From the IMG/VR virus record IMGVR_UViG_3300029288_000075, positions 64,001 through 128,000 of that record: DNA of 64,000 nt, one strand, 5' to 3'. Origin of the DNA: a virus. Its lineage: Duplodnaviria; Caudoviricetes. Under the pieces are notes generated by a model. It was given only the letters and a program-made list of their open reading frames with translations, ran no database searches and was not told the DNA's origin. The translations under genes and the position numbers were made by a program. Each line of letters starts with the position of its first letter. The stretch's first letter is position 1. Positions 4,016-62,340 of this stretch are shown in pieces.

Positions 4016-4717
4016 GATAGTGAAGGTTCGTGGGAACAGGTGGGAGATTACGTCGTCTACGATCTCGCCGTCCATGAAGGTGCGGTTCGCCACATTGGCG
4101 CCTAGTTGGCTGTGCACGTAGAAGTAGGCTACGTTGCGCAGGTTCTTCCTGGCTGCTTCCATGCAGGCATGCGCAAATGCCATGTTGGCTGTTTCTTCTA
4201 CAGCGCTTATGGCATGCAGCTTAGTGGCCAGAAGCAAGTAGTATTGCCAGGGCTCTGCTGTGCTGGCTAGCTGGGCAACGCGACGTAGGTACGTTTCATC
4301 CATCGCCTGGAATATGGAGGCCCACTCGAGTATGGCTCTGGCTTTGAAGGTGATGCGCTTCACATGCAGCGCTTTCTGCACTTTGACATGTAGCCGGTAC
4401 ATGTCTTCCTCGTCGAACGAGAGCACTCGCCCGTCTAGGCCGAGTGTTTTGCACAGGGCCTCGAGGCGGTCCTTCACGGTCCTACTGATTGAGAGCGCCA
4501 GCTCTGCGGTGGACGTGGCATCGCGGGTGGACCTTCTTGCGTGTCCTTCACGGTAAGCCAGTATCTCGTCCTTCTTGTACTTGGAGGATGCGGCAGTGCC
4601 GTTGTCTACGGCAGGGACTATCGCGTTTACGAACACCAGGTGCGACATCCATTTGCGGGAAATGCCCAGTAGGCGCGCGGCGCGGTTGTGCGAGACTAGG
4701 TGCTCTGACCTTCCCAT
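4013..4717 (-). CDS. Excisionase/MerR-like HTH DNA-binding protein
   Basis: N-terminal VSHNRAARLLGISRKWMSHLV...YKKDEILAY followed by a helical domain. Confidence 0.6.
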   Translation of the reverse strand: MGRSEHLVSHNRAARLLGISRKWMSHLVFVNAIVPAVDNGTAASSKYKKDEILAYREGHARRSTRDATSTAELALSISRTVKDRLEALCKTLGLDGRVLSFDEEDMYRLHVKVQKALHVKRITFKARAILEWASIFQAMDETYLRRVAQLASTAEPWQYYLLLATKLHAISAVEETANMAFAHACMEAARKNLRNVAYFYVHSQLGANVANRTFMDGEIVDDVISHLFPRTFTI

Positions 4718-4764
4718 GGGCTGAATCACGTGCTACTTCTTACGAGTGCTTGAAAGGGTTCGTG

Positions 4765-6039
4765 ATGCAAACTTCCCCACTGCAGCTCTTCCTCCAACAG
4801 CGCGAAGCGAGACCGGTGGCAGGGCAGCATCTGGAACATCTAGGTAAGGAAGCTGCCACAAACTGGGTGCTTGGGAAATGCGCTTCTCTACATGAGGCGG
4901 CGGTGAACGTACTTCGTGCGGAGCAGCTGTCTCCCGAGCAGGTACGTAGGGTAGTTGAATTTACCAACCAGAACGCGTATCTGCAGGAGTTCCGTAAGGA
5001 AGGCGACCACAAAGTGGTGCATTTCGATTGTGGACCCGCCGACCCTGCTCAAGTACTGCAAGATTTGAATGATGGTGGTGGGGGTTCGTTGTACGATCAG
5101 GGCAACTTGCACCACCGAGCAATCCCGACACGTACGTCTGCACGAGGAGCATCCATGGACAAGACCGCATCCGCCCAAGACCAAGGGATCCCTGGCCTGC
5201 CCAAATTGACCAGGCTGCCGGGCCTACCCAAGGCAGCGTCTGTACCGGAAGAGGAGCTGTGGGGGTTGTTTCAGACCGATGCGTCTGGCGCGCTTCCCTA
5301 CGCCGAACCGCGGCGTCCGTTGATGGACGTGCGCAGTAAACTTGCCGGAGTGCAGGGAGAGTTAGAGGACGCAGTCAATCAGCTCGAGCTGGACTATCAG
5401 GAGGCTTCGAGCCAGTTGTACCATCAGGTGAAGCAGGCGGCGTTGACGGGGGAGAGTTTGGGTTCGATTGTAGCTGCTTGGGCAACTGTCTCGGAAGCTC
5501 CGGTGTTCACGAAGGCGGCGTTTGCCATGCTCACTCCGCTGTTGCGTCATGACGGCGTATTCCCTTCGTTGGACAGCATTGGGGCGTCTTTGGAGAAGCA
5601 GGCTTCAGGCGTGGTGAATGGTGAGCATCCGCTGGTGCGTGCTTACGCAGATTTCGTGAATACGTTGGGCAAGTTGGCTGCAGCACGGGGGTTGCACCAG
5701 GAGTACCTCGAAGGAGTTGCCCTCACAGAGGAGCTGTTGAAAAACGCGGCAGGGGGTGTGGTAGGTGCCGTGAAAGCAACGGGGAAGGGGATTGACGCGA
5801 TCTCCGGTCCTTTGGCACACGCGCTGGTGGGCCCTGCTGACGCAAAGAAAGTGGCGCCGTCGATAGCCCGCGGGTTGAAGCTCACGGCGGGTGGTGCTGC
5901 GGTACTTGGCACCAACGCGGCCGTGCAGAATGTCACTGACCGCCCAGGCGTGCAGCGCGTGCTGCAGGCAGCTAAGTCCACCGTGCCAGGTACCATGGAG
6001 TACCAAAATCGTCGCTATCGCAACATGACGGGGATGTAA
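4765..6039 (+). CDS. Head morphogenesis/internal protein with multiple K-x-A motifs
   Basis: LSPEQVRRVVEFTNQNAYL domain; DKTAS, VKQAA, EKQAS, GKLAA, LKNAA; lies upstream of the protease. Confidence 0.7.
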   Translation: MQTSPLQLFLQQREARPVAGQHLEHLGKEAATNWVLGKCASLHEAAVNVLRAEQLSPEQVRRVVEFTNQNAYLQEFRKEGDHKVVHFDCGPADPAQVLQDLNDGGGGSLYDQGNLHHRAIPTRTSARGASMDKTASAQDQGIPGLPKLTRLPGLPKAASVPEEELWGLFQTDASGALPYAEPRRPLMDVRSKLAGVQGELEDAVNQLELDYQEASSQLYHQVKQAALTGESLGSIVAAWATVSEAPVFTKAAFAMLTPLLRHDGVFPSLDSIGASLEKQASGVVNGEHPLVRAYADFVNTLGKLAAARGLHQEYLEGVALTEELLKNAAGGVVGAVKATGKGIDAISGPLAHALVGPADAKKVAPSIARGLKLTAGGAAVLGTNAAVQNVTDRPGVQRVLQAAKSTVPGTMEYQNRRYRNMTGM

Positions 6040-6044
6040 TTACC

Positions 6045-6635
6045 ATGAACCCAGCAGAAGAGTTCTTGACGGAGAAGAAGGCGTTCGGTCTTGGGGCACT
6101 CACGGGAGCAGCCCGCTCTACGGGTAAAGCAATGTCCCCAGCGGCCAAAGCGTTTGGTTCTGCTGCTGCAGTGGGGGCTGGGGCTGCGGCATTTGCTGGG
6201 CTGGCGGGTGGTGCAAGCAAGCTGTACGCAGCGGCCACCAAGACTCGAGACTTCCGCGCCATGCTGGATGCGAATCCAGACTTGCTACAGCATCAGAAAG
6301 CAGACCCGGCAGGGTTCAATCGCATGTACTCTTCGTTGCGCACATTGGCACCGGAGTTTGCTGCGGAACCGCTGGTAGCTGGCTATTACCTACGTCAAGG
6401 TATGGAGGGCCTCATGGAGGGTCGTGGCGGCGTGTCTGTGCAGGCCATGAATGCAAAGCGTCCTGTGCAGACCGGGCCTATGACGGATGCGGCCTTGCAG
6501 GGGTACATGAGGGGCATGGGTTCGAAGAAGGAAGAGGGTCCTCGACCGCAGTTGGTATCGCAGACGCGACATCGATTCGACCCGGAAACTCAGGGGTGGC
6601 AGCAAACTGAGACCACCGAGAATCGGTACGGATGA
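6045..6635 (+). CDS. Putative internal head protein (K-x-A leader, Gly/Ala hydrophobic segment)
   Basis: MNPAEEFLTEKKAF leader; AAAVGAGAAAFAGLAGG. Confidence 0.7.
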   Translation: MNPAEEFLTEKKAFGLGALTGAARSTGKAMSPAAKAFGSAAAVGAGAAAFAGLAGGASKLYAAATKTRDFRAMLDANPDLLQHQKADPAGFNRMYSSLRTLAPEFAAEPLVAGYYLRQGMEGLMEGRGGVSVQAMNAKRPVQTGPMTDAALQGYMRGMGSKKEEGPRPQLVSQTRHRFDPETQGWQQTETTENRYG

Positions 6636-8320
6636 TCAAGGTCAGTCTCTTCCAGGGCAGCGAGGAGTACGGACCCGCGGCTGTGCCGCTGTTTGGGCCA
6701 TCGGATAGCTACTTCGAGAAGACGGCTTCCGCTACGCTTTTGCCAGAAGTAGCTGACTACATCGCGCACTTGAAGCCGAGGAATGACTCGCAGTACGTAC
6801 TCGTCAACGCCATGGGCGCCGGTGAGTATTACGGCTCCAACGTGAACGGGGATCGCTTTGCAGAGGCTGCTTTGGTACACGCCCCTGCCCGGTGGACAGG
6901 CAAGCCTGTTCACGACATGACGGTAGGAAAGTCTTGGGCCTACGGTTACCCTACGTTCTACGGGGCACATGTTTTTCCGCATCACAAGAACAAGGATCCC
7001 AACCGGGCGCTAGGGACTGTCGAACTGGCGGCGTGGAATCCGCATATGAAGCGTGTCGAGCTCGTCACTAGGCTCGAACACAAGCTGTGCAAGGGATTTG
7101 GCGGTGAAGGGATTTGGGACAAGCTGGTAGCAGGTGAATTTCCTGATGTGAGCATGGGTACCAAGGTGCCCTTCGATACGTGCTCCATTACCTTGGATCG
7201 CGAGCTCTATCAGAAGGCGTGGGATACGTACAATCCCAGCCTGCATCGTAGTCCTGGGGATGCCATTCTTCAGTTCCATAAGAAACTGAAGGCCAAGAAC
7301 GGCGTAGGCATCCGCGGGTTGAGTATCACGCGCGTCGACTACTCAGAGTATGCGCGCCACATGATGAACCAGATCTTGCCAGATGGACGCAAGGTTTGGG
7401 TGGACAATGATTTCCCGAAGTTCTTCGACATTTCGTTTGTGTTCATGGGCGCAGACAAGATTGCCAAGGCCATGCTGAAGATTGCGGCCGGTGGCAAGCG
7501 TGTGTACTCCATCGGCTCGGCAGAGTTGGCAGACAAGCTTGCTGAGTACGACATGATTTGGATTCCAGAGCCTGCGGTCACGGAAAAGACTGCCGGCGTT
7601 TCGAGTATTGAGGACCGCCTGTTGCGGATGGCCGAGCGACGAGGAGAGACGCTCGAGCAGTCGGGAAAGAGCACGGCGAAATCCGCGATGACCAAGGAGG
7701 TCGTTCCCAACCAGCTGGCAGGGAAGGCTGTCCCCCTGCTCACGAGCCAAGAGCGAGATTTGCCGGACAAAGTGCTGGACGAGCTGGCTACTGCTGGGTT
7801 TGGGCCTGCACTTTCTACGGCAACAGGGCTAGGAATTGTGCTCAAGCCTCGCGAGTTTCAGCGTATTACCCTGATTTGCCTGGGTAATCGTGCGGCGGCA
7901 GACGGATTGGACGCGTTAGATCAGGTGTTTCCTCTGTCGTCGGAGAGGGAAGAGCTGCCTCTTGGCCTGGGTGACTTCAGTCCAGCGTTGTCCAGTATCC
8001 TGGCTCCGTTCATGGATTCTAGGTCTTCTCTTGGCCCGCACATCGAGCGGCGCGTAGTCCTTGTGGCAGGTACAACACCTTCGGGTGGTAAAAAGACAGC
8101 TTCCCATTCCTCTGAACTGCTCCGTAAGATTGGGGCTGCCTATAATGGCTATCGAGAAGGCCTCATGCAGTTTGTACCCCATGCGCAAGACTTGATGGAA
8201 GCGACGTCTACTCAAGACGGTCTGCGAAAGCTTGCCGCACTAGCTGCAGAGGAACTATTCACCCCACTGAGCTACCATTACTTGAGCACCGCGTATTTGG
8301 ACGAGGTGACACGTGGGTAG
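6632..8320 (+). CDS. Prohead (capsid maturation) protease
   Basis: GSNVNGDRF, HVFPHHKNKD (His), DVSMG (Ser), FFDISFVFMGAD motifs of HK97/herpes-fold phage proteases; upstream of scaffold and capsid genes. Confidence 0.8.
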   Translation: MIKVSLFQGSEEYGPAAVPLFGPSDSYFEKTASATLLPEVADYIAHLKPRNDSQYVLVNAMGAGEYYGSNVNGDRFAEAALVHAPARWTGKPVHDMTVGKSWAYGYPTFYGAHVFPHHKNKDPNRALGTVELAAWNPHMKRVELVTRLEHKLCKGFGGEGIWDKLVAGEFPDVSMGTKVPFDTCSITLDRELYQKAWDTYNPSLHRSPGDAILQFHKKLKAKNGVGIRGLSITRVDYSEYARHMMNQILPDGRKVWVDNDFPKFFDISFVFMGADKIAKAMLKIAAGGKRVYSIGSAELADKLAEYDMIWIPEPAVTEKTAGVSSIEDRLLRMAERRGETLEQSGKSTAKSAMTKEVVPNQLAGKAVPLLTSQERDLPDKVLDELATAGFGPALSTATGLGIVLKPREFQRITLICLGNRAAADGLDALDQVFPLSSEREELPLGLGDFSPALSSILAPFMDSRSSLGPHIERRVVLVAGTTPSGGKKTASHSSELLRKIGAAYNGYREGLMQFVPHAQDLMEATSTQDGLRKLAALAAEELFTPLSYHYLSTAYLDEVTRG

Positions 8321-8413: not shown

Positions 8414-9163
8414 ATGTCCGGAATCAACGCTCTACTGAACGATGCATACGCAAAGACCGCTGCCACCGCTGAAGATCTCGAGAAGACTGCCCAGCTCGAG
8501 TACTTTGGTGCTCTCTGTGAACGGGAGAGCATCGACGTAGCCCGTCTGGATGACGAGCAAGCCATGAACCTCTTCAAGACTGCGATGGAGATGAAGGCTG
8601 CAGAAGAAGAGGCCGCCAAGGAAGAGAAGAAGGAAGAGGGCAAGGAGGGTAAGAAGGCCCCTCCATTCGGTGGTCCTGCGCATGAAGCCAAGGAAACTCC
8701 CAAAGAGGAGAAGAAGGAAGAGAAGGCCAAGGAAGCCGCCGTGCAAGAGTGGCAGTCCAAGGTTGCCGAGGCGCGATCCGCGTATGAGGCGACTGTGGCC
8801 GGCCGTCTTATGGCAGATGCGTTCATCGACCAGATGCAGAAGCGCGCTGCGGCGGGTGAGGCGGGCGCTGCTGGAGATGCGGCGCGTGCGGTCATCGAGC
8901 AGGCAAAGATTGCATCGGCTGCCCCTGCTCGGTCGGATACTCCTTCGATCGATTTCGTTGCGGGCAACCGCGCCATCGACCTTCTCAAGGAGGCCGGCTA
9001 CGACGCGGACGAGGTAGTGAGCAAGGTCAACGCCATCTACACGCTGGGGCTGCCCGCCAGTACCAAGCTTGCTTCTGTGCCAGACTTCAACAGCGCTGTA
9101 GAGATGCGTGCCCTCGAGATTTGTGAACTTGCTGGCGCGTCGGTGGATTGGAGCAAGGTCTAG
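8414..9163 (+). CDS. Scaffold-like protein
   Basis: AGGAG SD; E/K-rich helical; AKTAA, EKTAQ, QKRAA, AKIAS, TKLAS. Confidence 0.65.
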   Translation: MSGINALLNDAYAKTAATAEDLEKTAQLEYFGALCERESIDVARLDDEQAMNLFKTAMEMKAAEEEAAKEEKKEEGKEGKKAPPFGGPAHEAKETPKEEKKEEKAKEAAVQEWQSKVAEARSAYEATVAGRLMADAFIDQMQKRAAAGEAGAAGDAARAVIEQAKIASAAPARSDTPSIDFVAGNRAIDLLKEAGYDADEVVSKVNAIYTLGLPASTKLASVPDFNSAVEMRALEICELAGASVDWSKV

Positions 9164-11603: not shown

Positions 11604-12722
11604 ATGTCCGTTCCGGCGAGTGTACTGAACGAGCTCTTTGCTTCGAAACTCAGCACGAGTGAAGGCAAGGAAAAGATCGCCGAGTATGGTGGTAGTTACA
11701 TTCGAGACCGCCTCCGCGAGGTGAGCTTTGCCCGCAAAGTCATCCCGCCGGAGCAGGTCACGCGTGCCGACTGCCAACGCTCGGTGAACCACGACACCTT
11801 GGTCAAGATTGTCGACGTGGAGCCCAAGAGCCGCGCCATGGCAATTTCGTTCCGAGGGCAACCGACAGCCCGCTTCATTCGAGGCGAAAAGGCCGAGGTC
11901 GCATTCTTCACCATCAGTTCCGAGATGTTCCAGAAGACGGAGCAGGAGCTGTTGGCCTACGAGATGCCCATCACCAAGATCATCGAAGAGAACTCGGTGA
12001 AGGACATCCAGGAAATCGAGGACCGCGAGTTCACGATCCACGTTGAAGCCGCCGTGCAAGCGTTGCAGACGGAAGCCAATGGTGGGACTCCCACTGCGCT
12101 GCACGTCGGCACCATCGGTACTACCGTGGAGTTCTCGGTGCGCAAGGGTGAGCTTGCTCGCAACGCCGCAGCGAACACGGCGGAGGTTCTCCCGGTCAGC
12201 CGCGTGGACATCGTCGCCCTGTTCAAGATGTTGGACGGGAATCGTCTGCGGTCCGAGCGGTTGCTCATGACCGAGATGGACTGGGACGACATCTTGTCTT
12301 GGACGGTGGAAGACTTCGGTGACCGTATTCAGTCCGAAACGACTGTCGACGGCTACAAGTACAACACCATTCTTGGTCGTGCGTACATTCGCACCATCAA
12401 GACGGACATCCTGCGCCCCGGCAACATCTACACCTTCGCCAAGCCGGAGTTCTTCGGGAAGTTCTACGTCCTGAACAACACCAAGTTCTACATCGACAAG
12501 ATCGCCAACACGATCACCTTCCAGGCGTGGGAAGACATCGGTATGTCGGTCATCAACATCGCGGCGGTCCGCAAGCTCGAGCTCTACTCGGGCGATGCAA
12601 ACCCCACGACGAACGCAGACGGCCTCCTCGACAACTTCATCCCGAGGTCCGAGGACGCGCTGGGTGCGGTCAACAACCGTGTGGATGCGGGCCTCAAGTT
12701 CCCGCAGGTTTCGCAGTACTAG
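11604..12722 (+). CDS. Major capsid protein (HK97-like fold)
   Basis: 372 aa; AAGGAG SD; strongly biased codons; IRDRLREVSFARKVIPP...IQEIEDREF pattern; followed by a terminator. Confidence 0.8.
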   Translation: MSVPASVLNELFASKLSTSEGKEKIAEYGGSYIRDRLREVSFARKVIPPEQVTRADCQRSVNHDTLVKIVDVEPKSRAMAISFRGQPTARFIRGEKAEVAFFTISSEMFQKTEQELLAYEMPITKIIEENSVKDIQEIEDREFTIHVEAAVQALQTEANGGTPTALHVGTIGTTVEFSVRKGELARNAAANTAEVLPVSRVDIVALFKMLDGNRLRSERLLMTEMDWDDILSWTVEDFGDRIQSETTVDGYKYNTILGRAYIRTIKTDILRPGNIYTFAKPEFFGKFYVLNNTKFYIDKIANTITFQAWEDIGMSVINIAAVRKLELYSGDANPTTNADGLLDNFIPRSEDALGAVNNRVDAGLKFPQVSQY

Positions 12723-50409: not shown

Positions 50410-52316
50410 TGGCAGTGTATATTGAACTCACCACGGACCCGTTTATTGCCAACTACCAGCGCATGGTAGACAGGAATGACCCAGCGTTGTCCCGCAGTGG
50501 CAGGGCGGGGCTTGCCAATGTACGTCGGCCGTTGCGCGGTGTAGAGATCAAAGAGGACACCTACGCGTGCCTGAAGGTATTGCGTGCCGACGGTAGTGAG
50601 ATGCCGTTCATGGATTCCAGCTCGGCGAATGGCCAGTCTACCTCCTATTCCAACTTCATCCTGCAGTCGGTGCAGGAGCAGCGTATGGAGAAGCACCAGA
50701 TTGTGGAAACCTTTGGGGACACCTACCTATTTCTGTTTGGGGAGGCTCCGAGGTTCCTTGACGTCAGTGCGGTGCTGCTCAACAGCAACGACTTCAACTG
50801 GGAAGCTGAGTGGTGGGCAAATTGGGAGACTACGCTGCGTGGTTCGAAGTCTGTGGAGAATGGCGCACGTACCTACTTGTTCTACGACGACAACATCGTC
50901 GAAGGATACATGCTGATGGCGCAGGCGCAGAAGATCAGCACGGAGCCGATTCAAATACCTCTTACTTTTAGGCTCTTCGTCTCCAGCATCCGCAACGTAT
51001 CTTCAATAGGAGATCCAAACTTTCCCGTTGCAGAGTCGGTATTCTTGCCGCCAGATGTCTCACTTACTAGCGGCGATGCATTCCAGCAGCTGCGGGACTA
51101 CTACGAGGCCAACAACGGGTACCTGAGTCCGGGACAAGCCAACTCCTGGATGGACAACGTGTTGAGGAATACAGACCCCCGTCAACTAGGTACGGGCGCA
51201 AAGCTGGTGGACTTGTTGAAGCGTGGAACCCGCGCCATTGCATTCCCCTCGAGCGTTCAGGCGTACTTGGATGAAGCATCCCCTACTCTGGGCGTGCAGA
51301 ATGTGTTGGGCATGTACGACAGCAAGCCGATGCGCAGTCTGATTGCTGACAACGCAGACGAGTACACTGGGTATGACCCAAAGAACGCAGAGCTGAATTC
51401 TCAGTTGCCCGAGGTGTACGACCCAAGAGTTCGTGGTCAGCTCGAGGTAGAGGACTTGTTCCAAGAGGCAATCCAGTGGATGAGTTGCTTTGGGGCGAAC
51501 ATCAACAGCTACAATGCGCTCAATGGATTAGGCATGGGCGTGAACTTCTTGCCCAGTACAGGCGTTGGTATTGGCATTGGTGGTAGCGCGGGGTCAGGCT
51601 TAGGAGCTACCTTTGGCGCCGTCCCCGCGGGTGGCGGTGTTGGCTTTGGCGTCAATAACCGCAGCGGCGTGACCGGTGGCATGTTCGCAGGTCCCGGTAC
51701 CTACGGCTCAGCGCAGCAAGGCATGGCGTCAAATGGTTTTGGGATGGCGCAGGCTGGACAACCTGTCTACTCGCCAGGGCAGTTGTCCTCGGCACGTAGT
51801 GATGTGTTGTTCAGCGCCGGCGCCAATAACCGGTACCCGAACGACACGTTGTCCACAGGCTATGGAGATCCCGGGTACGGCTATTCTGGTCCGTACGGCG
51901 GAGCTGGCTACGGTCAGTCCGGTTTTGGAGACTACGGGGGGTTGGGGTACGGCTCGAGCTTTGGGTCCACCGGGGATCCCGGGTTTATGCCGCCGTCGGC
52001 GTTCAGCCGAGCCGGGATTGCGGATACCCGTAGTGACTTTCAGCGGTTGACTGCACCCAAGCCCGGTTTTGGCTCTGGCTTTGGTGGGGTACCCGCGGGG
52101 GCAAGCTTTGCCGGTGCCGGTGCCGGTGCTTCCGTATCGGTGGGCGGTTCTTTGACTGCGTTCTCGATTTTTGCAGCGCCAGGGACCTTGAATCCGTATG
52201 GCAATGCGCTGGCGGCAAATGGGAGACGTCTTGGTTTGACCGAGAGGAACCCGTTTGGGGTACCGTGCCTTGGTGCCACAGGACTTACCAGAATCAACCT
52301 ACTGGACATGATTTGA
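50409..52316 (+). CDS. Baseplate/tube-initiator-like protein with Gly/Tyr-rich C-terminus
   Basis: NFILQSVQEQRMEKHQIVETFG tube-like domain; GYG/GFG low-complexity tail. Confidence 0.55.
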   Translation: MAVYIELTTDPFIANYQRMVDRNDPALSRSGRAGLANVRRPLRGVEIKEDTYACLKVLRADGSEMPFMDSSSANGQSTSYSNFILQSVQEQRMEKHQIVETFGDTYLFLFGEAPRFLDVSAVLLNSNDFNWEAEWWANWETTLRGSKSVENGARTYLFYDDNIVEGYMLMAQAQKISTEPIQIPLTFRLFVSSIRNVSSIGDPNFPVAESVFLPPDVSLTSGDAFQQLRDYYEANNGYLSPGQANSWMDNVLRNTDPRQLGTGAKLVDLLKRGTRAIAFPSSVQAYLDEASPTLGVQNVLGMYDSKPMRSLIADNADEYTGYDPKNAELNSQLPEVYDPRVRGQLEVEDLFQEAIQWMSCFGANINSYNALNGLGMGVNFLPSTGVGIGIGGSAGSGLGATFGAVPAGGGVGFGVNNRSGVTGGMFAGPGTYGSAQQGMASNGFGMAQAGQPVYSPGQLSSARSDVLFSAGANNRYPNDTLSTGYGDPGYGYSGPYGGAGYGQSGFGDYGGLGYGSSFGSTGDPGFMPPSAFSRAGIADTRSDFQRLTAPKPGFGSGFGGVPAGASFAGAGAGASVSVGGSLTAFSIFAAPGTLNPYGNALAANGRRLGLTERNPFGVPCLGATGLTRINLLDMI

Positions 52317-55512: not shown

Positions 55513-55531
55513 TTCCACTTTGGCCAGTGGA

Positions 55532-55541
55532 ATGGTACAAC
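55532..55541 (+). promoter_or_regulatory. ATGGTACAAC promoter, leaderless start at 55548
   Basis: TACAAC-N6-ATG; preceded by inverted repeat TTCCACT/AGTGGAA (55513-55532). Confidence 0.55.
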
Positions 55542-55547
55542 TGATCC

Positions 55548-55784
55548 ATGCTGAACGCTCAAGTTCTATCCAGTTTTGGTGCAGAGGTATCGAAGGTAGC
55601 TGCCAAGAAAGACGTGGGGCAGCTCCTGGCTAGCTTGGCTTCAAGGCAGGGGCATAGGCCTTCGCTTTTCCCTAGCATTCAACAAGTGAAGAATGTGGCG
55701 ACCCGAGATCGTGGTCGAGCTGCCGAAATTGCCTCCAACATCCGCTCTACGTTGAAGAACACTGCCGCGGTGCAGGCGGCTTAG
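55548..55784 (+). CDS. Small K-x-A leader protein
   Basis: VLSSFGAEVSKVAA. Confidence 0.6.
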   Translation: MLNAQVLSSFGAEVSKVAAKKDVGQLLASLASRQGHRPSLFPSIQQVKNVATRDRGRAAEIASNIRSTLKNTAAVQAA

Positions 55785-55786
55785 CC

Positions 55787-57205
55787 ATGGCTGTCCCGAC
55801 TCTTGTGACGCCGTTGCTTACCCTACTGGTCAAGGTGTCCGCTGCACGTTCTCGCATGACCGTGTCGCAGACGCGGTCAGGCAGACGCCCGATGCGTGTG
55901 GAGACCATGCTCAAGAAGGACAACGAGGGTACCCTGTATCGCAATTGGAAGGATCACATACCCGGCGGATTGGCAGACAAGAAGAAGCCCACTGATTTCG
56001 ATCCTGCTGCGTTGGCCAAAGGTACCAAGGTGGAGTTCGAGCACACCGACAGGCTGCTTACTGCGTCTGAGATTGCCATGGACCACCTTGTCGAGGACCC
56101 TCGGTACTACGACAAACTCGAGAAGATGGAAGAGGGTGGGGCTAAGCATGCTGGTTTGTTGGATGTGTTGAAGGCTCCTATTCCTGGGACCAAGGACTGG
56201 TTCGTGAACACCGGTAAAGCTGGACTGCAGGGAGCTCATAGACTCACGGGCACCATGCCTGCGCGTCCCGGGGCATTGCGAACTGCAGCGAATTCGGTGG
56301 CTCCTGCAGCACGGGCGTCAGGGGCTCTGCCTGTTGCACGTGGCGGGGTGTACGGGATCTCGGAAGCGGAGCTGCAACGTCTAGGCTTTGGGGATTTGAT
56401 GAAGTCGGGGTCTGCTAAAAAGGTCGAAGACCTGAAGAAGGCGGCCTATCGTCTGCAAGGTCACACGGAAGTACAGGGACTTCCAATCGCCATCGAAAAT
56501 AGAAAGGGCTCTGTGCGGTCTGGCGAGGACCCAGACGGCACCCCGTGGCGCACGAAGTACAAGTACCCTTACGGTTACCTCGTGGGTACCAAGGGAAATG
56601 ACGACGAAGAGATTGATGTCTACGTAGGTCCCAACAAGGCAGCCCCCAACGCGTACGTAGTACATCAGCACAAGGTCACTGGCAAAGGCTACGATGAAGA
56701 CAAGGTGATGTTGGGTTTCGAGTCGGAAGCAGCTGCTAGGGCGGCGTACCTCGAGCACTACAACAAAGTTGGACCAAAGCTTCTTGGTCCCATCACGGTC
56801 ATTGCCATGAAGCGGCTGATAGAGATGCTGGCGCAGAAGAAGGAGTACAAGAAGCTGGCCACAGCCGACATATCCAACAATACGCTGATGACGGACCGAG
56901 CGGGGCCAACTACACGTAGCAAGCCTGGTGATGTACCAGACGCTATGGATGTGGCATTCTCCAAACTCAAGCAAGCATGGGATGGCGTTGGCTCTAGTGG
57001 AGGTCCTACCGGAAACAGAATGGCCATGCTTGACATGGATGAGAAGCCCGATCGAACAAAGCCGGGTGATGTACCATCACGGGATGGAACCAGTCCCGGC
57101 GCCGCACGCATCGAGCGGCATGAGGCAGGGCCGGATTTCATGACCACGTTACCTACGAACGGCGCCATGGCTAGTTCTCAGACCGGAGCAACTACGAGGC
57201 TTTGA
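55787..57205 (+). CDS. K-x-A polyprotein with DUF5661-like and inorganic-pyrophosphatase-like (InPase) domains
   Basis: GTKVEFEHT..EIAMDHLVEDPRYYDKL; IENRKGSVRSG..YGYLVGTKGNDDEEIDVYVG..YDEDKVMLGF. Confidence 0.75.
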   Translation: MAVPTLVTPLLTLLVKVSAARSRMTVSQTRSGRRPMRVETMLKKDNEGTLYRNWKDHIPGGLADKKKPTDFDPAALAKGTKVEFEHTDRLLTASEIAMDHLVEDPRYYDKLEKMEEGGAKHAGLLDVLKAPIPGTKDWFVNTGKAGLQGAHRLTGTMPARPGALRTAANSVAPAARASGALPVARGGVYGISEAELQRLGFGDLMKSGSAKKVEDLKKAAYRLQGHTEVQGLPIAIENRKGSVRSGEDPDGTPWRTKYKYPYGYLVGTKGNDDEEIDVYVGPNKAAPNAYVVHQHKVTGKGYDEDKVMLGFESEAAARAAYLEHYNKVGPKLLGPITVIAMKRLIEMLAQKKEYKKLATADISNNTLMTDRAGPTTRSKPGDVPDAMDVAFSKLKQAWDGVGSSGGPTGNRMAMLDMDEKPDRTKPGDVPSRDGTSPGAARIERHEAGPDFMTTLPTNGAMASSQTGATTRL

Positions 57206-58068
57206 TGCAATACTCAGAAGTCCAGTGGGCATCGTTCAGCGAGCAGCTAAGCAAGGAGGCTTTTTCGTTAGCTGGGATGGGGTCTACCTTGCGCGGTGCG
57301 CTGGGTTCCTCTATGGGAAAGGCCAAGGCCCCGACGGGGTGGATTCTGCCGAGTAGGAAGGGGTTGGCTCTGGGTTCTGCTGCGAAGCCCGGTGCAAGCA
57401 TGTTTCCTGCCCCTGGTGGTGTGGCCGCAACCCCAGGTGTATTTCAGTCTTTTGGCAAATCACTGCAGGAAGGCGGCAAGCTGATGCAGCGAGATTCGAC
57501 CAAGAGCCTACTGGCAGGTAAGTCTGTGTCGGCTGGTCCCGCCGCACGCATGGGGGGTGAGGTGGCGCAGTCGGTAGGGCACCACTACGCACACAAGGGT
57601 ACCTTAGGAAACCTCGTCAACCCACTAGGCGGTGCCCTGGGTGGGATGGCCGAGGGGATCACTCGCGGGGCTGGTAAAGAGTTGACCCGTGGAGCTGGTG
57701 CCCTAGGCGCGCATGGGCCGGCGGCTTTGCAGGGTACAGCGCGCACCATGGGTAGATTTGGCACGGGCATGCAACGAGCAGCCAAGGGCGTTGGTATGGC
57801 CGGTGAGGTAGCGGGGCTAGCCGGACTTGGTACGGCCGTACACGCTCCGCTGTCTTTGGCTGGTGCCGTCGGCGGGAAGATTGTGGGCGGGGCATCGCAA
57901 GCTCTCCCCATACTGACCGACGCACTGCACAGCGCCGGCGACGTAGTGGCGCATGGCGCGCACGACGTAGTGGGCAACGCGGCGCATTCAGCAGCAGGAA
58001 AAGTGCAGAGTGCTGCCAAGCGGTCATTGCCCTCGATGAGTCCACAACTTGTTCATGGAGTACCCTGA
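57205..58068 (+). CDS. K-x-A leader, Gly/Ala-rich protein
   Basis: WASFSEQLSKEAF; Gly zippers. Confidence 0.65.
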   Translation: MQYSEVQWASFSEQLSKEAFSLAGMGSTLRGALGSSMGKAKAPTGWILPSRKGLALGSAAKPGASMFPAPGGVAATPGVFQSFGKSLQEGGKLMQRDSTKSLLAGKSVSAGPAARMGGEVAQSVGHHYAHKGTLGNLVNPLGGALGGMAEGITRGAGKELTRGAGALGAHGPAALQGTARTMGRFGTGMQRAAKGVGMAGEVAGLAGLGTAVHAPLSLAGAVGGKIVGGASQALPILTDALHSAGDVVAHGAHDVVGNAAHSAAGKVQSAAKRSLPSMSPQLVHGVP

Positions 58069-58544
58069 TGTCCATCACCTACGACGAAGCTCTGCACGAT
58101 TGTCTTGTCGATGCACTAGGGAAGCTGGCAGGTCAATGTGGCTTGAAGGTCGCCGAGGTTTCTTCAGAAAGAGCCCGTCGAGCCATGGATCGTCTGAGTT
58201 CCATGGAAGACACCAAGCCCACGGTGGGTCAGGTGGCGCGTTACGCAGGTATTGGCGGTGGCGGTGGCGCGGCTGTCAAGGCCATCGGCAATGTGATTGA
58301 GGGGTACAAGAAACCCACGGTTCCTGGGGTCAAAGGACACCTGTTGGCCTTGGGTAGGGCAGCCGTGAAGGGGGACGTGAACAAGACGGTAGGCTCCAAG
58401 ATCCGCTCCGTAGCATCTACCGGGATCACTGGGGCTCTGGGGGCAGGGGTAATCCCACTTGCTCGCAGCGGTAGTGACCGTGCAGCAGAGCGGAAGGTTC
58501 TCAAGAAGTACATTCAACAGACTCCAGCGGTGCCCAATGCCTGA
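58068..58544 (+). CDS. K-x-A leader, Gly-rich protein
   Basis: CLVDALGKLAG, LKVAE. Confidence 0.6.
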   Translation: MSITYDEALHDCLVDALGKLAGQCGLKVAEVSSERARRAMDRLSSMEDTKPTVGQVARYAGIGGGGGAAVKAIGNVIEGYKKPTVPGVKGHLLALGRAAVKGDVNKTVGSKIRSVASTGITGALGAGVIPLARSGSDRAAERKVLKKYIQQTPAVPNA

Positions 58545-59718
58545 GTGGATGCACAATCGAGCCGAGCACATACTTGCCAAGAATCCTTCGATGCCCAAGT
58601 CGGAGGCCTTTGCCATTGCAACGCAGCAGAGCCACGCTACAGGGCATTCTCCAAAGGGGTTTGGTACAGCCGAGGGAAGAGCGAAAGCCAAGGCCAAGTT
58701 CGATACTCCCAAGGGTGACGAGCATCGGGCGAATCCAGGTAACTTGACGAGCTCCAAGATGGCCGCGGCGGCGTTTACGCATGTAGTGTCTGTGCGTACC
58801 ACGCGTGATGGTGCCGGCGCTTTACGTGACATCCTGCACAACATCCAGCAGAATGGTGCCCCCGGGCACTCCTTTGGGATAGTAACGACGGATAAGCCCG
58901 CGCGCCACATTGGAAGTTGGGATGGGGATGGCGCCGATACAATGGCTCTTCCTACCATGCACAAGATGGCGTCCGTAGTAGGCTGGTTGTTGGAGTCTAC
59001 TGGGTTGCTAGGGAAACTTGGCTTTGCCAGCTCCTCCTACGGGGGTCAGCCGGCACAAAATGGTCCTGGAATGCGTGGACGTAGCCAGATTCCACCCTTC
59101 GTGGCTCCTCCCATTGAGGTGAAGGCAGCCGGGCTGCGGCGCGTGGGAGAACTGGTTACAGGTAGTCGAGCGAACAAGCTCTACGACGCTGCGCTTCGTC
59201 ATGCCGATTCTGCTCGAGGAGGTAGTGCAGCAAGCGCAAAGGCCGTTCGAAAACTGCGTGGGCTTGCCCACATGGAAGAGGGAAACGTGGGGCGTATGCA
59301 GGGTGCCTTGGCTACAGGTGCTGGCATTGGGGCTGTAGCGGATCTCACTGGTTTTGCGGAGAGACGTGCCAAAGCTAAGGAGGCAGGCGTGGGTGTGGGC
59401 GCCGGGATGTCTGCTTCGCAGTACTCTGGGCCGCTCTCATATGGTCCATTCAAGCAAGAGAGTGCGATTCCTGCATTCATTTCTCCGGGCATGACCAAGA
59501 CGGACCCGCGGTTGGAAGCGCCCGCCTACGCCACCGGTGGCAACAAGACTGCTGGTGCGGCAACGGGGGCCATGACGGCGGCCGGTCGTCTTCGGGCAAG
59601 TCAACGACTCACCGCACCAAAGCTTACTGGGTTTTCTGGCCCTAGCATCGCGGACATTGCTAAGCCAAAGGGCTTTGGAAAGCCGCTGTCGGGGGCACTG
59701 AAAGGTACTCTCGGATGA
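58537..59718 (+). CDS. K-x-A polyprotein
   Basis: SKMAA, HKMAS, GKLGF, VKAAG, AKEAG, NKTAG; N-terminal KSEAFAIATQQ module. Confidence 0.65.
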   Translation: MPEWMHNRAEHILAKNPSMPKSEAFAIATQQSHATGHSPKGFGTAEGRAKAKAKFDTPKGDEHRANPGNLTSSKMAAAAFTHVVSVRTTRDGAGALRDILHNIQQNGAPGHSFGIVTTDKPARHIGSWDGDGADTMALPTMHKMASVVGWLLESTGLLGKLGFASSSYGGQPAQNGPGMRGRSQIPPFVAPPIEVKAAGLRRVGELVTGSRANKLYDAALRHADSARGGSAASAKAVRKLRGLAHMEEGNVGRMQGALATGAGIGAVADLTGFAERRAKAKEAGVGVGAGMSASQYSGPLSYGPFKQESAIPAFISPGMTKTDPRLEAPAYATGGNKTAGAATGAMTAAGRLRASQRLTAPKLTGFSGPSIADIAKPKGFGKPLSGALKGTLG

Positions 59719-60116
59719 CTCCTGCGGCTATCTCTGCATGCTGCAGGGAGCTTACCAAGGTTGCTCTGCTCGAGCGCCTGGTACGTTTGGGCGCTACCGA
59801 TATCCCTCGAACGCCTCGACTTCTCATGAAGCACAGAGACCCTAAGGCGCTGGCGGCGTTGCAGCAGGCAACTGAGACGGCGTGGGACTCAAGGGTTACC
59901 GCGCCCCTGATGCGGGCTGCTGATCGAGGGCTACGGCATCTTCCTGAAGGCAAGGCTCGCAACTTGGCCACCTCCGGTGCGCGGTTGTTGGCCGAAGATC
60001 CTGTTGGATTTACGGTCACGAATGCCATACCAATACCGGGAGCTTCTCCTGCTTGGATCGCGGCCAAAAGGGGACTTGAACGCGTGATTGACAAGACTGC
60101 GCCTCTGCAAGTCTGA
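59715..60116 (+). CDS. K-x-A leader protein
   Basis: ISACCRELTKVAL. Confidence 0.6.
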   Translation: MTPAAISACCRELTKVALLERLVRLGATDIPRTPRLLMKHRDPKALAALQQATETAWDSRVTAPLMRAADRGLRHLPEGKARNLATSGARLLAEDPVGFTVTNAIPIPGASPAWIAAKRGLERVIDKTAPLQV

Positions 60117-61132: not shown

Positions 61133-61588
61133 ATGGCACATTCAAGTACAGACGATTACCCCGTTCGCATCACTTCTCCCGACTACAAGACGGCTGACCG
61201 CAGTGAGTTGGAGGCGTGGCTTAGAAAGGAAGCTGCAGCTGTAGCTGGAGGGGTCAAGCCTGAGGACAACGAGGATTCTACAACCGCTCAATACAGCGAG
61301 TTGTACGAGCCTCCAGCTGGCGCAAAGAAGCTCGTAGAGACTGCCCTCCATACGACGTACCCTAATGGGGCAGCCTCGCAGGCCACGCAGCGTGAGGTAC
61401 TGGACGGCGCATTTGCCAGTACACCAGCTACAGCCAAGGCAGAGCAAGCGCTACTTAGCGCAAATTTCGAACATGCGCGCACTGGAGACTTCGAAACGCA
61501 AGCGCCATTGCTACGTGGCGAGCGCGCGAAGGGTAAGGTAGCGCACTTTCTGTCAGACCGTACGCACTTGCTGGGGCTTGGGAAGTGA
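61133..61588 (+). CDS. Hypothetical protein
   Basis: TACACT -10, GGAGG SD; coupled to the sigma gene. Confidence 0.6.
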   Translation: MAHSSTDDYPVRITSPDYKTADRSELEAWLRKEAAAVAGGVKPEDNEDSTTAQYSELYEPPAGAKKLVETALHTTYPNGAASQATQREVLDGAFASTPATAKAEQALLSANFEHARTGDFETQAPLLRGERAKGKVAHFLSDRTHLLGLGK

Positions 61589-62340
61589 ATGCAGCTGACG
61601 AATTCCTAGAGACCAAGCAGAAGACCGCCGCGGCTCGAGCCGCGCAGGATCTTCATCTTTGGCATGCGTGGGATCAAGGAGGAAGGACACCTCAGCTGCT
61701 GGAGCCACTGCTGTCCAGGTACGACTCGCTCATGAACCGTAGGGCGAATGACTGGCGTGCCCCTACGGTGGCCCCGGCGGCATTCAAAGCTGAGCTGCAT
61801 AAGCAGTTCATTCAAGCAGCACACTCGTACGATCCTGAGCGTGGTGTGGCCTTCAACACACACGTGCAGTCTCGTTTGAAGAAAGCTCAGCGGTTCAACG
61901 CCAAGCACCAAAACGTGGGGTACATACCTGAGGACTTGTCCAGACACGTAGGTCCCATGGAGCGTGCCAAGAACGAGCTTACGGACCAGTTCGGACGTCC
62001 CCCCACTACGGTGGAACTTGCGAATCACATGGGCTTGCCGCAGCGTAAGCTCACTGCGCTAATTACTCAGCTACGAAGGGATGTGCCATCGTCGCATTTC
62101 GAGTCAGATCCCACGACGCTATCCACGGGTAGGGAAGCAGACGTGGTTCGTTTGATGAAGCGCAGACCGGAGGAGTACCTGACACCCGAGGAAGTACGGG
62201 TATTTTCTCACATCTACGGCATCAACGGTGCTCGGAAGATTACGGATACGACGTCGTTGGCCACCCAACTTGGGTTGAGTCAACCAAAGGTCTCACGCTT
62301 GAAGACCTCAATCGCGAAGAAGGTTCAGCAGTACCTCTGA
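61585..62340 (+). CDS. RNA polymerase sigma factor, sigma70 family (FliA/WhiG/SigF-like)
   Basis: Region 2 YDPERGVAFNTHV, region 3 FGRPPTTVELANHMGL, region 4 LTPEE...LATQLGLSQPKVSRLK. Confidence 0.85.
   Translation: MNAADEFLETKQKTAAARAAQDLHLWHAWDQGGRTPQLLEPLLSRYDSLMNRRANDWRAPTVAPAAFKAELHKQFIQAAHSYDPERGVAFNTHVQSRLKKAQRFNAKHQNVGYIPEDLSRHVGPMERAKNELTDQFGRPPTTVELANHMGLPQRKLTALITQLRRDVPSSHFESDPTTLSTGREADVVRLMKRRPEEYLTPEEVRVFSHIYGINGARKITDTTSLATQLGLSQPKVSRLKTSIAKKVQQYL

Follow-up and report, generated by a model that had tools for sequence, protein, structure and literature searches.

Lys-x-Ala sites at the domain junctions of an InPase protein point to possible cargo processing in the head of a large uncultured phage

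In phage T4, cargo proteins of the head are thought to exit with the DNA, and their capsid targeting sequence is processed by the protease gp21 (PMC9026906). Phages phiKZ and SPN3US use the motif Ser/Ala/Gly-x-Glu, which is cut after Glu, with several cuts per substrate (PMC10052503). A polyvalent protein combines 2 to 15 effector domains in a single polypeptide and is encoded among genes for the virion or for DNA transfer. Iyer et al. (2017) proposed that phages package the InPase domains of such proteins, and that these domains serve either to clear pyrophosphate (PPi), to the benefit of replication or early transcription, or to attack signals that resemble nucleotides (PMC5512222). Here, we analyzed a 64,000-nucleotide stretch of viral DNA (the window), bases 64001 to 128000 of a single 187,857-bp contig that has the appearance of a large tailed phage. 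We focused on one gene (55787 to 57205, plus strand) that encodes the 472-amino-acid (aa) protein P0001, in which a DUF5661 domain is joined to an InPase domain and Lys-x-Ala (K-x-A) triplets stand at the domain edges. We lean, by a modest measure, toward P0001 being a cargo polyprotein that is loaded into the capsid and cut by a prohead protease, in the manner of T4 and phiKZ, though at sites of another specificity. An earlier annotation of this DNA (the original prediction) had pointed out that the InPase domain occurs in polyvalent proteins of phages and plasmids, which is right for phages (Iyer et al.).

From its N terminus, P0001 consists of a leader, a basic segment, DUF5661, a linker, InPase, and a conserved disordered tail. 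Pfam recognized both domains: InPase (PF18823) at residues 218 to 345 (positions 56438 to 56821; E = 1.3e-38; 132.3 bits versus a cutoff of 26.8), covering profile positions 6 to 131 of 135, and DUF5661 (PF18905) at residues 78 to 116 (E = 9e-12; 45.6 bits versus a cutoff of 27). In an AlphaFold2 model made with an 80-sequence alignment, residues 4 to 23 formed a helix, the DUF5661 helices spanned residues 73 to 117 with a predicted local distance difference test (pLDDT) score of 92 to 97, and the strands and helices of InPase spanned residues 225 to 350 (pLDDT, 90 to 98; last helix, 341 to 350). The pLDDT was below 50 at residues 121 to 126, 141 to 189, and 207 to 220 and in most of 361 to 472. 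The folded cores comprise residues about 55 to 118 for DUF5661 (55949 to 56140; three helices with pLDDT above 92, delimited by Pfam, AlphaFold2, and Atlas clusters) and about 221 to 352 for InPase (56447 to 56842; a family I pyrophosphatase-like fold). The linker between them (residues 123 to 216; 56153 to 56434) is mostly of low confidence and occurs in long orthologs only, being missing in the short orthologs compared.

Most of the K-x-A triplets follow this architecture. KHA (residues 120 to 122; 56144 to 56152) lies three residues beyond the last DUF5661 helix, KKA (residues 217 to 219, or KKA/KAA 217 to 220; 56435 to 56443) lies a few residues ahead of the first InPase strand, and KLA (residues 356 to 358; 56852 to 56860) comes directly beyond the last InPase helix, shortly before the pLDDT drops below 50 from residue 361. 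KQA (residues 395 to 397; 56969 to 56977) is in the disordered tail, ahead of a conserved WDG... sequence, and the remaining triplet, KAA (residues 284 to 286; 56636 to 56644), falls within the InPase fold and is not named in the original prediction. The leader (residues 1 to 18; 55787 to 55840) is a predicted helix ending in K16-V-S18. Three of five sites were wholly inside 6-residue windows at three domain edges (P of about 1e-4 for random placement), the windows having been defined after the data were seen. The original prediction had placed an InPase-like domain at about 56444 to 56860, flanked by LKKA and KKLA, and a DUF5661-like domain at about 55950 to 56150, ending at AKHA. Both profile matches and the model agree with this layout: KHA, KKA, and KLA stand at domain edges, and with KQA included, all four sites are at domain edges or in low-pLDDT linkers. 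The two KPGDVP peptides said to follow KLA and KQA are likewise in place, the first (residues 379 to 384; 56921 to 56938) in the 39-residue peptide from KLA to KQA, which is missing from many orthologs, and the second (residues 425 to 430; 57059 to 57076) within the C-terminal tail.

Next, we turned to the relatives of P0001, of which there are nearly 200 of similar length, the closest from contigs of 186 to 203 kb. K356 was invariant in 18 orthologs, and K16 and K120 were nearly so. In the 80-sequence alignment, we scored column conservation as the start of K-x-[ASG] among sequences with a residue at that position; the motif was found at K16 in 59 of 62 sequences, at K120 in 41 of 43, and at K395 in 74 of 77 (95 to 96%). 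The ortholog leaders share the consensus phi-x-x-E-L-x-K-[LIV]-A, and the leader contained K-x-[AS] in 57 of 69 sequences (22.4 expected). The linker from DUF5661 to InPase contained K-x-A in 41 of 48 sequences (25.7 expected). Overall, conservation of the sites goes well beyond chance. The surroundings of K120 vary among the ortholog linkers while the motif stays, and the short linkers hold little beyond K-x-[AGS] (e.g., KRAYT, KSAFS, and KGAASEPEHK); all short linkers listed open with this motif or carry it from residue two.

Insertions, deletions, and fusions among the orthologs also begin and end at K-x-A sites. In the short form P0016, the DUF5661 helix leads directly to ...K-R-A-Y-T-LQGH, and ...H-T-K-L-A leads directly to WDG.... 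In P0008 and P0028, an NlpC/P60-type domain (PF05708) is inserted between K-S-G and K-[VL]-A-F, and in P0013, an ortholog from a 193-kb contig, an insert with an HExxH motif (residues about 125 to 400) is placed between E-K-R-A and E-K-K-A-Y. This insert, which reads …S-H-E-I-G-H…, may be a metallopeptidase-like cargo module. In P0244, an SNF2 helicase is fused to InPase via ...E-K-T-A-F-K-LQGH, and a K-x-A-[FY]-x-LQGH junction recurs after the NlpC (P0008), HExxH (P0013), and SNF2 (P0244) domains. More generally, InPase in longer relatives is fused to SNF2, GNAT, NlpC, ligase, and portal domains. Beyond InPase, P0244 has an internal leader-like sequence (...F-F-S-E-L-A-K-I-G) and then a module that shares homology with the gene at 58068 to 58544 of the window, beginning at the K-V-A of that gene (E = 3e-21). 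The gene at 59715 to 60116 similarly matches an internal module of P0258 from its own K-V-A onward (E = 2e-41). The same modules thus exist in two forms, as separate leader-bearing genes and as stretches joined in frame after an internal K-x-A/G. We are highly confident that K-x-A is under selection at the junctions.

We then examined the motif at the genome level. In 211 open reading frames (ORFs), K-x-A occurred 339 times, compared to 265 ± 14 times in shuffles. Only this spacing was enriched (observed/expected ratio of 1.30), with KA and KxxA to KxxxxxA all at about 1.0. The excess sits in K-x-A-[A/S/G] (127 observed versus 70.9 ± 7.6), and K-x-A before other residues was at expectation. 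When the looser K-x-[ASG] was sought in the first 20 to 40 residues of all 211 ORFs, the enrichment was not significant; the motif signal is confined to a subset of proteins and to the stricter motif. The K-x-A excess is concentrated in a small number of head-module proteins: the 709-aa protein upstream of the terminase (16 observed versus 3.8 expected), the protein encoded at 4489 to 6039 on the plus strand (11 versus 2.9), the putative protease at 6632 to 8320 (8 versus 3.7), and the scaffold-like protein at 8414 to 9163 (11 versus 4.9). Orthologs of these K-x-A-rich proteins in three other contigs are similarly enriched. The listed TTG start of the gene at 4489 to 6039 yields an odd Arg/Cys-rich N terminus; its orthologs are shorter (418 to 468 aa) and begin with M-S-…-L-E-V-[LF]-G-K-x-A, so the gene probably starts further downstream.

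Leaders of the K-x-A type were found on the genes at 55548, 55787, 57202, 58068, 59715, 61585, 6045, 6632, 8414, and 11604. At least 10 proteins besides P0001 bear a leader, including the major capsid protein (MCP), the protease, and a sigma factor, and the leader is conserved where orthologs were compared. The N-terminal 26 residues of the MCP (11604 to 12722, plus strand; phrog_2522) end in K-I-A (11673 to 11681), and the MCPs of three related contigs (L005 to L007) retain K-x-A at residues 23 to 28. Around P0001, the form hydrophobic-x-x-E-L-x-K-x-A is shared by the 78-aa product of the adjoining upstream gene (55548 to 55784, plus strand; …AEVS-K-V-A), by P0001 itself, by three of the genes 3′ of it (57202 to 60116, plus strand; leaders ending in K-x-A at 57202, 58068, and 59715), and by the phage sigma factor (Sigma70_r3; 61585 to 62340, plus strand; …EFLETKQ-K-T-A). 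The leaders are kept in two related contigs with identical gene order, that of the sigma factor included. Literature searches for a Lys-x-Ala head-protease motif found nothing.

The candidate enzyme for such sites is the putative prohead protease of 562 aa (6632 to 8320, plus strand), encoded between the terminase and the MCP. Its model has a disordered segment (residues 1 to 34), a folded domain (about 35 to 271), a K-x-A-rich disordered region (272 to 363), and a helical C-terminal domain. The propeptide ends in an invariant F-E-K-x-A, here F-E-K-T-A (K30 to A32; 6719 to 6727). The best structural match was T4 gp21 (5jbl; Z = 8.4; root mean square deviation of 2.8 Å; 131 of 166 residues; 18% identity). 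Herpesvirus proteases came next (Z of 5 to 7.4). In their spacing and sequence surroundings, the invariant H117/H118 and S174 (...P-D-V-S...) resemble H85 and S140 of gp21 (...P-G-V-S...). In Atlas, the nearest clusters with a name were Peptidase_S77 and S80, which serve as a lead only, and a PDB sequence search with the protease gave nothing meaningful. About 1,500 homologs were found in metagenomes, the best 120 being 62 to 100% identical over residues 1 to 300. Among the homologs P0155, P0160, P0161, P0171, P0207, and P0229, several are about 950 aa long, with intein/LAGLIDADG matches (PF14528, PF14890, and PF13403); such inteins fit an essential enzyme.

The motif extends to Salmonella phage Arash, a distant cultured relative (locus L008, OQ632216.1; 14214 to 20608 of the locus). 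The Arash homolog of the protease, gp222 (33% identity), has ...T-K-Q-A near its N terminus, and the Arash MCP, gp226, has K-E-A at residues 27 to 29, also near the N terminus (...L-V-K-E-A-G). Three Arash proteins had more K-x-A triplets than expected (gp220, 10 versus 3.0; gp223, 8 versus 3.0; and gp225, 7 versus 1.8). The Arash gp23 "pyrophosphatase" was considered as a counterpart of P0001 and set aside, P0001 having no match in the parts of Arash compared. Mass spectrometry of Arash virions listed 116 proteins, with the RNA polymerase present in the particles (PMC10585845). Taken as a head-protease site, which we consider likely, the K-x-A motif can be tried at the bench in Arash, since this phage bears it on the MCP, the protease homolog, and neighboring head-module proteins.

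The mechanism we propose for P0001 is as follows. The amphipathic N-terminal leader ending in Lys-x-Ala/Ser would load the protein into the assembling prohead, where the T4 gp21-like protease (6632 to 8320) would cut after Lys-x-Ala/Ser/Gly at the end of the leader and at exposed interdomain junctions. The cuts would come after residues 18, 122, 219, 358, and 397, giving a DUF5661 module, a family I-type pyrophosphatase-like enzyme (InPase, about residues 220 to 358), and short conserved peptides. Pieces retained in the head would exit with the DNA at infection, and InPase would then hydrolyze pyrophosphate or a nucleotide-like diphosphate; one use of this hydrolysis might be to drive forward the early transcription carried out by the RNA polymerase that the phage itself encodes. 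The steps are not equally secure. Packaging of P0001 is probable, cutting at its internal sites is favored by a small margin over their staying intact, and action of InPase in the newly infected cell is a tentative proposal that we would not rate at even chances. The idea of an injected effector acting on nucleotide or PPi signals, raised in the original prediction, is speculation.

Several observations weigh against this mechanism. The number of K-x-A triplets in P0001 is at chance (6 observed versus 4.4 expected from composition), and simple enrichment within the protein was rejected on this count. The original prediction had named triplets inside folded domains as evidence against itself; one conserved triplet, KAA 284 to 286, is indeed inside InPase, and the other sites are outside the folds. 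As KAA is followed by Pro in P0001 and in most close orthologs, we did not count it as a refutation, and it is probably neither a junction nor a substrate. The residues after two of the junctions, Thr359 and Trp398, depart from the Ala/Ser/Gly preference seen across the genome, and the P0001 leader is atypical, with K-V-S and without the acidic residues of its orthologs. A linker of low pLDDT need not be accessible in the prohead. For the protease, the assignment depends on context together with a structural score of moderate size, and hhalign of the protease profile with T4 gp21 gave no significant alignment, so the correspondence of catalytic residues is inferred and not mapped residue by residue. 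With as many as 116 virion proteins listed for Arash, its packaged RNA polymerase is weak evidence (PMC10585845). Finally, the motif as a cleavage site, the packaging of P0001, its ejection, and the substrate of the enzyme are parts that we infer.

Some of these points suit an alternative in which only the leader is removed, or nothing at all, so that the two-domain P0001 stays whole in the virion and the internal K-x-A triplets are uncut relics of shuffling. The proven cuts in SPN3US nearly all remove N-terminal propeptides rather than internal linkers (PMC10052503), the residues following positions 358 and 397 are atypical, and the case of KAA within InPase means that a triplet is not always a site. 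We nevertheless regard this alternative as unlikely, though it is the strongest of those considered. Wherever the alignment can be trusted, about 95% of orthologs retain the internal sites, while the linker around K120 varies. In addition, if the internal copies went uncut, it would be difficult to account for modules that are found both free-standing with a leader and internally behind K-x-A/G.

A different explanation is that K-x-A is no protease site but a docking or sorting motif (for scaffold, portal, or chaperone) or a preferred seam for module recombination. Docking draws on the predicted helicity of the leader, in which K-x-A is within the helix, and on T4, where the leader's role in targeting can be separated from its role in processing (PMC9026906). 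However, the motif is densest in the scaffold-like and protease proteins and is present at the N terminus of the MCP, all of which are classical protease substrates, and the internal copies are in disordered linkers with no common helix context. A seam for DNA recombination, for its part, would not keep a protein motif under selection in every ortholog. We consider this explanation, in either form, to have only a slim chance of being correct, and cleavage by the head protease remains our preferred account of the motif.

The link of InPase to the virion bears on whether P0001 is packaged at all. In Foldseek, the top matches for the P0001 InPase were all family I pyrophosphatases (PPases; probability of 1.00), and in VIA-align wide, the eight best chains were all PPases (Z of 5.0 to 6.2; model residues 217 to 354), the scores being moderate because the query is multidomain. 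Alignment to E. coli Ppa by hhalign covered just 29 columns (probability of 55%) and placed Y262, D272, E274, and D277 on Y55, D65, D67, and D70 within the core Y-G-Y...D-x-[DE]-x-x-D. E237, R244, D303, D305, and Y325 were invariant in 80 homologs, with equivalence to Ppa judged by eye only. No assay of a PF18823 member came up in the literature searches. Among solved sequences, that of the C-terminal part of gp19, the Pa193 portal (PDB 9b41; E = 7e-18), was the closest; residues 529 to 765 of this portal are without density (PMC11456595). PHROG and GenBank names on InPase matches include minor head protein, internal head protein, (virion) structural protein, and DarB-like antirestriction protein. 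That P0001 is instead an ordinary cytoplasmic enzyme of nucleotide or pyrophosphate metabolism, never packaged and with incidental motif positions, is very improbable: the nucleotide-metabolism genes Thy1 and RNase HII downstream of its counterpart in relatives would suit such a role, and any structural role of P0001 is putative, but the leader is shared with the MCP, protease, and scaffold-like proteins, some orthologs carry the cell wall amidase-type module PF05708, fusions of InPase to portals and to head proteins occur elsewhere among phages, and the triplets are placed at domain edges (P of about 1e-4).

Further features of P0001 were noted. A later start at M41 (55907), which has GGAG upstream and a better ribosome-binding site, was rejected; the first 40 residues are conserved in orthologs, so the ATG at 55787 is the start. 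The basic segment between the leader and DUF5661 (residues 27 to 47; 55866 to 55927, plus strand) reads Q-x-R-S-G-R-R-x-M-x-V-x-T-[ML]-L-K-K-D, with R30, G32, R33, and R34 nearly invariant. For DUF5661, the whole-model search gave no solved fold above a Z of 3.7, which is no proof of a new fold since the domain was not folded alone, and neither a PDB sequence search nor literature searches found anything meaningful on it. Its Atlas neighbors are DUF5661 clusters, some fused to CTP_transf_like (cytidylyltransferase-like), HD, or crAss_CARG1 (crAss cargo). The tail of 75 residues (398 to 472; 56978 to 57202, plus strand; …DEKPDRTKPGDVPSRDGTSPG…TGATTRL) ranks among the best-conserved parts of the family despite its predicted disorder, and the upstream KPGDVP peptide resembles a partial duplicate. 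Together, these two features suggest a binding motif for some partner. Neither the tail nor KPGDVP has other copies in this genome.

The genome itself has no near-identical match among the cultured phages searched. Its nearest cultured relatives, judged by the terminase large subunit (TerL; 1041 to 2987 of the window) and the MCP, are distant: Arash (29% identity in the MCP and 27% in TerL) and the Vibrio phages D69, D181, and D148 (about 187 kb each). In a Pfam and PHROG scan of ten P0001 neighbors, matches were limited to the sigma factor and a single PHROG family without a name. Upstream of the window, a 2,131-aa ORF (contig positions 52188 to 58583) has matches to two Arash proteins, gp206 (RNA polymerase beta; 34% over 1,263 aa) and gp216, which is labeled subunit beta in GenBank and beta′ in the Arash paper, and is thus a beta/beta′ RNA polymerase fusion. 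This fusion has no leader and no K-x-A excess (11 observed versus 12.4 expected). The Arash homolog of the sigma factor, gp10, also lacks a K-x-A-type leader, though the Arash paper counts it among the virion proteins. The 1,064-aa protein encoded upstream of P0001 (52318 to 55512, plus strand) resembles Arash gp8, annotated as a cell wall hydrolase and structural protein, at its N terminus (26% over 141 aa), and the gene order from large proteins through the sigma factor is common to this genome and Arash gp4 to gp10. The 35-nucleotide gap between the 1,064-aa and 78-aa genes (55513 to 55547) contains a perfect inverted repeat of 7 bp (TTCCACT…AGTGGAA) around a 6-nucleotide loop, which could form a small hairpin opening the leader-gene block.

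A wider reading, to which we give slightly less than even chances, would cover the widespread uncultured phages of about 175 to 205 kb to which Arash is a distant relative. Their T4-type head protease would cut after Lys-x-Ala, and one and the same leader of 12 to 20 residues would both tag proteins for loading into the capsid and link modules at the points to be cut. Cargo enzymes (pyrophosphatase, cell wall amidase, SNF2 helicase, and sigma factor) could thus be strung together, split, or swapped, whether as genes or as polyprotein modules. Cutting in the head would separate them, and they would be delivered along with the DNA and the phage RNA polymerase. If P0001 is cut, a pyrophosphatase-like enzyme is freed inside the head. 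If Lys-x-Ala sites in general are cut, they define a third class of head-protease specificity beside the Leu/Ile-x-Glu of T4 and the Ser/Ala/Gly-x-Glu of phiKZ, nearer the herpesvirus rule of cutting after Ala. It would also follow that the capsid-loaded proteins of a large and abundant uncultured phage group can be read from sequence alone, and the movement of cargo enzymes between separate genes and polyprotein modules would be explained.

The closest parallel is the T4 system of IPI-III, Alt, and gp21, in which a short N-terminal leader on unrelated proteins likewise ends in a protease motif. As in T4, the protease, scaffold, and MCP all bear the same motif here, and the protease fold matches gp21 (Z = 8.4). 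The motif itself differs (Lys-x-Ala/Ser/Gly rather than Leu/Ile-x-Glu), the protease has 562 aa with a long C-terminal extension, and the leaders described here, known from their sequences, also occur as internal linkers between modules in a polyprotein layout. The phiKZ gp175 and SPN3US gp245 systems resemble this one in being those of large phages with many head proteins, several motif copies per substrate, and a multisubunit RNA polymerase of their own (here the beta/beta′ fusion); there is no detectable sequence relation to their substrates, however, and TerL and the MCP indicate another lineage. Herpesvirus assemblin cuts after Ala, usually before Ser, but Lys at the third position before the cut is not known to be a general requirement. 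The candidate protease is of the same fold class (Z of 5 to 7.4), and the Ala cut resembles the K-x-A-[A/S/G] preference seen here, although assemblin comes from a eukaryotic virus without cargo polyproteins. Polyvalent proteins differ in that P0001 is small and has no metallopeptidase (MPTase) domain of its own for self-processing (no peptidase family matched it at E values up to 1); processing would take place in trans by the head protease, at a short motif, and DUF5661 is not among the domains described under that name (PMC5512222). P0001 nevertheless belongs with them by its two named domains plus conserved peptides and its place in a cluster of leader-bearing genes, and both the polyvalent proteins (Iyer et al. 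2017) and the Pbunavirus portal-InPase protein (Pa193 gp19) share with it the same PF18823 family in a virion context.

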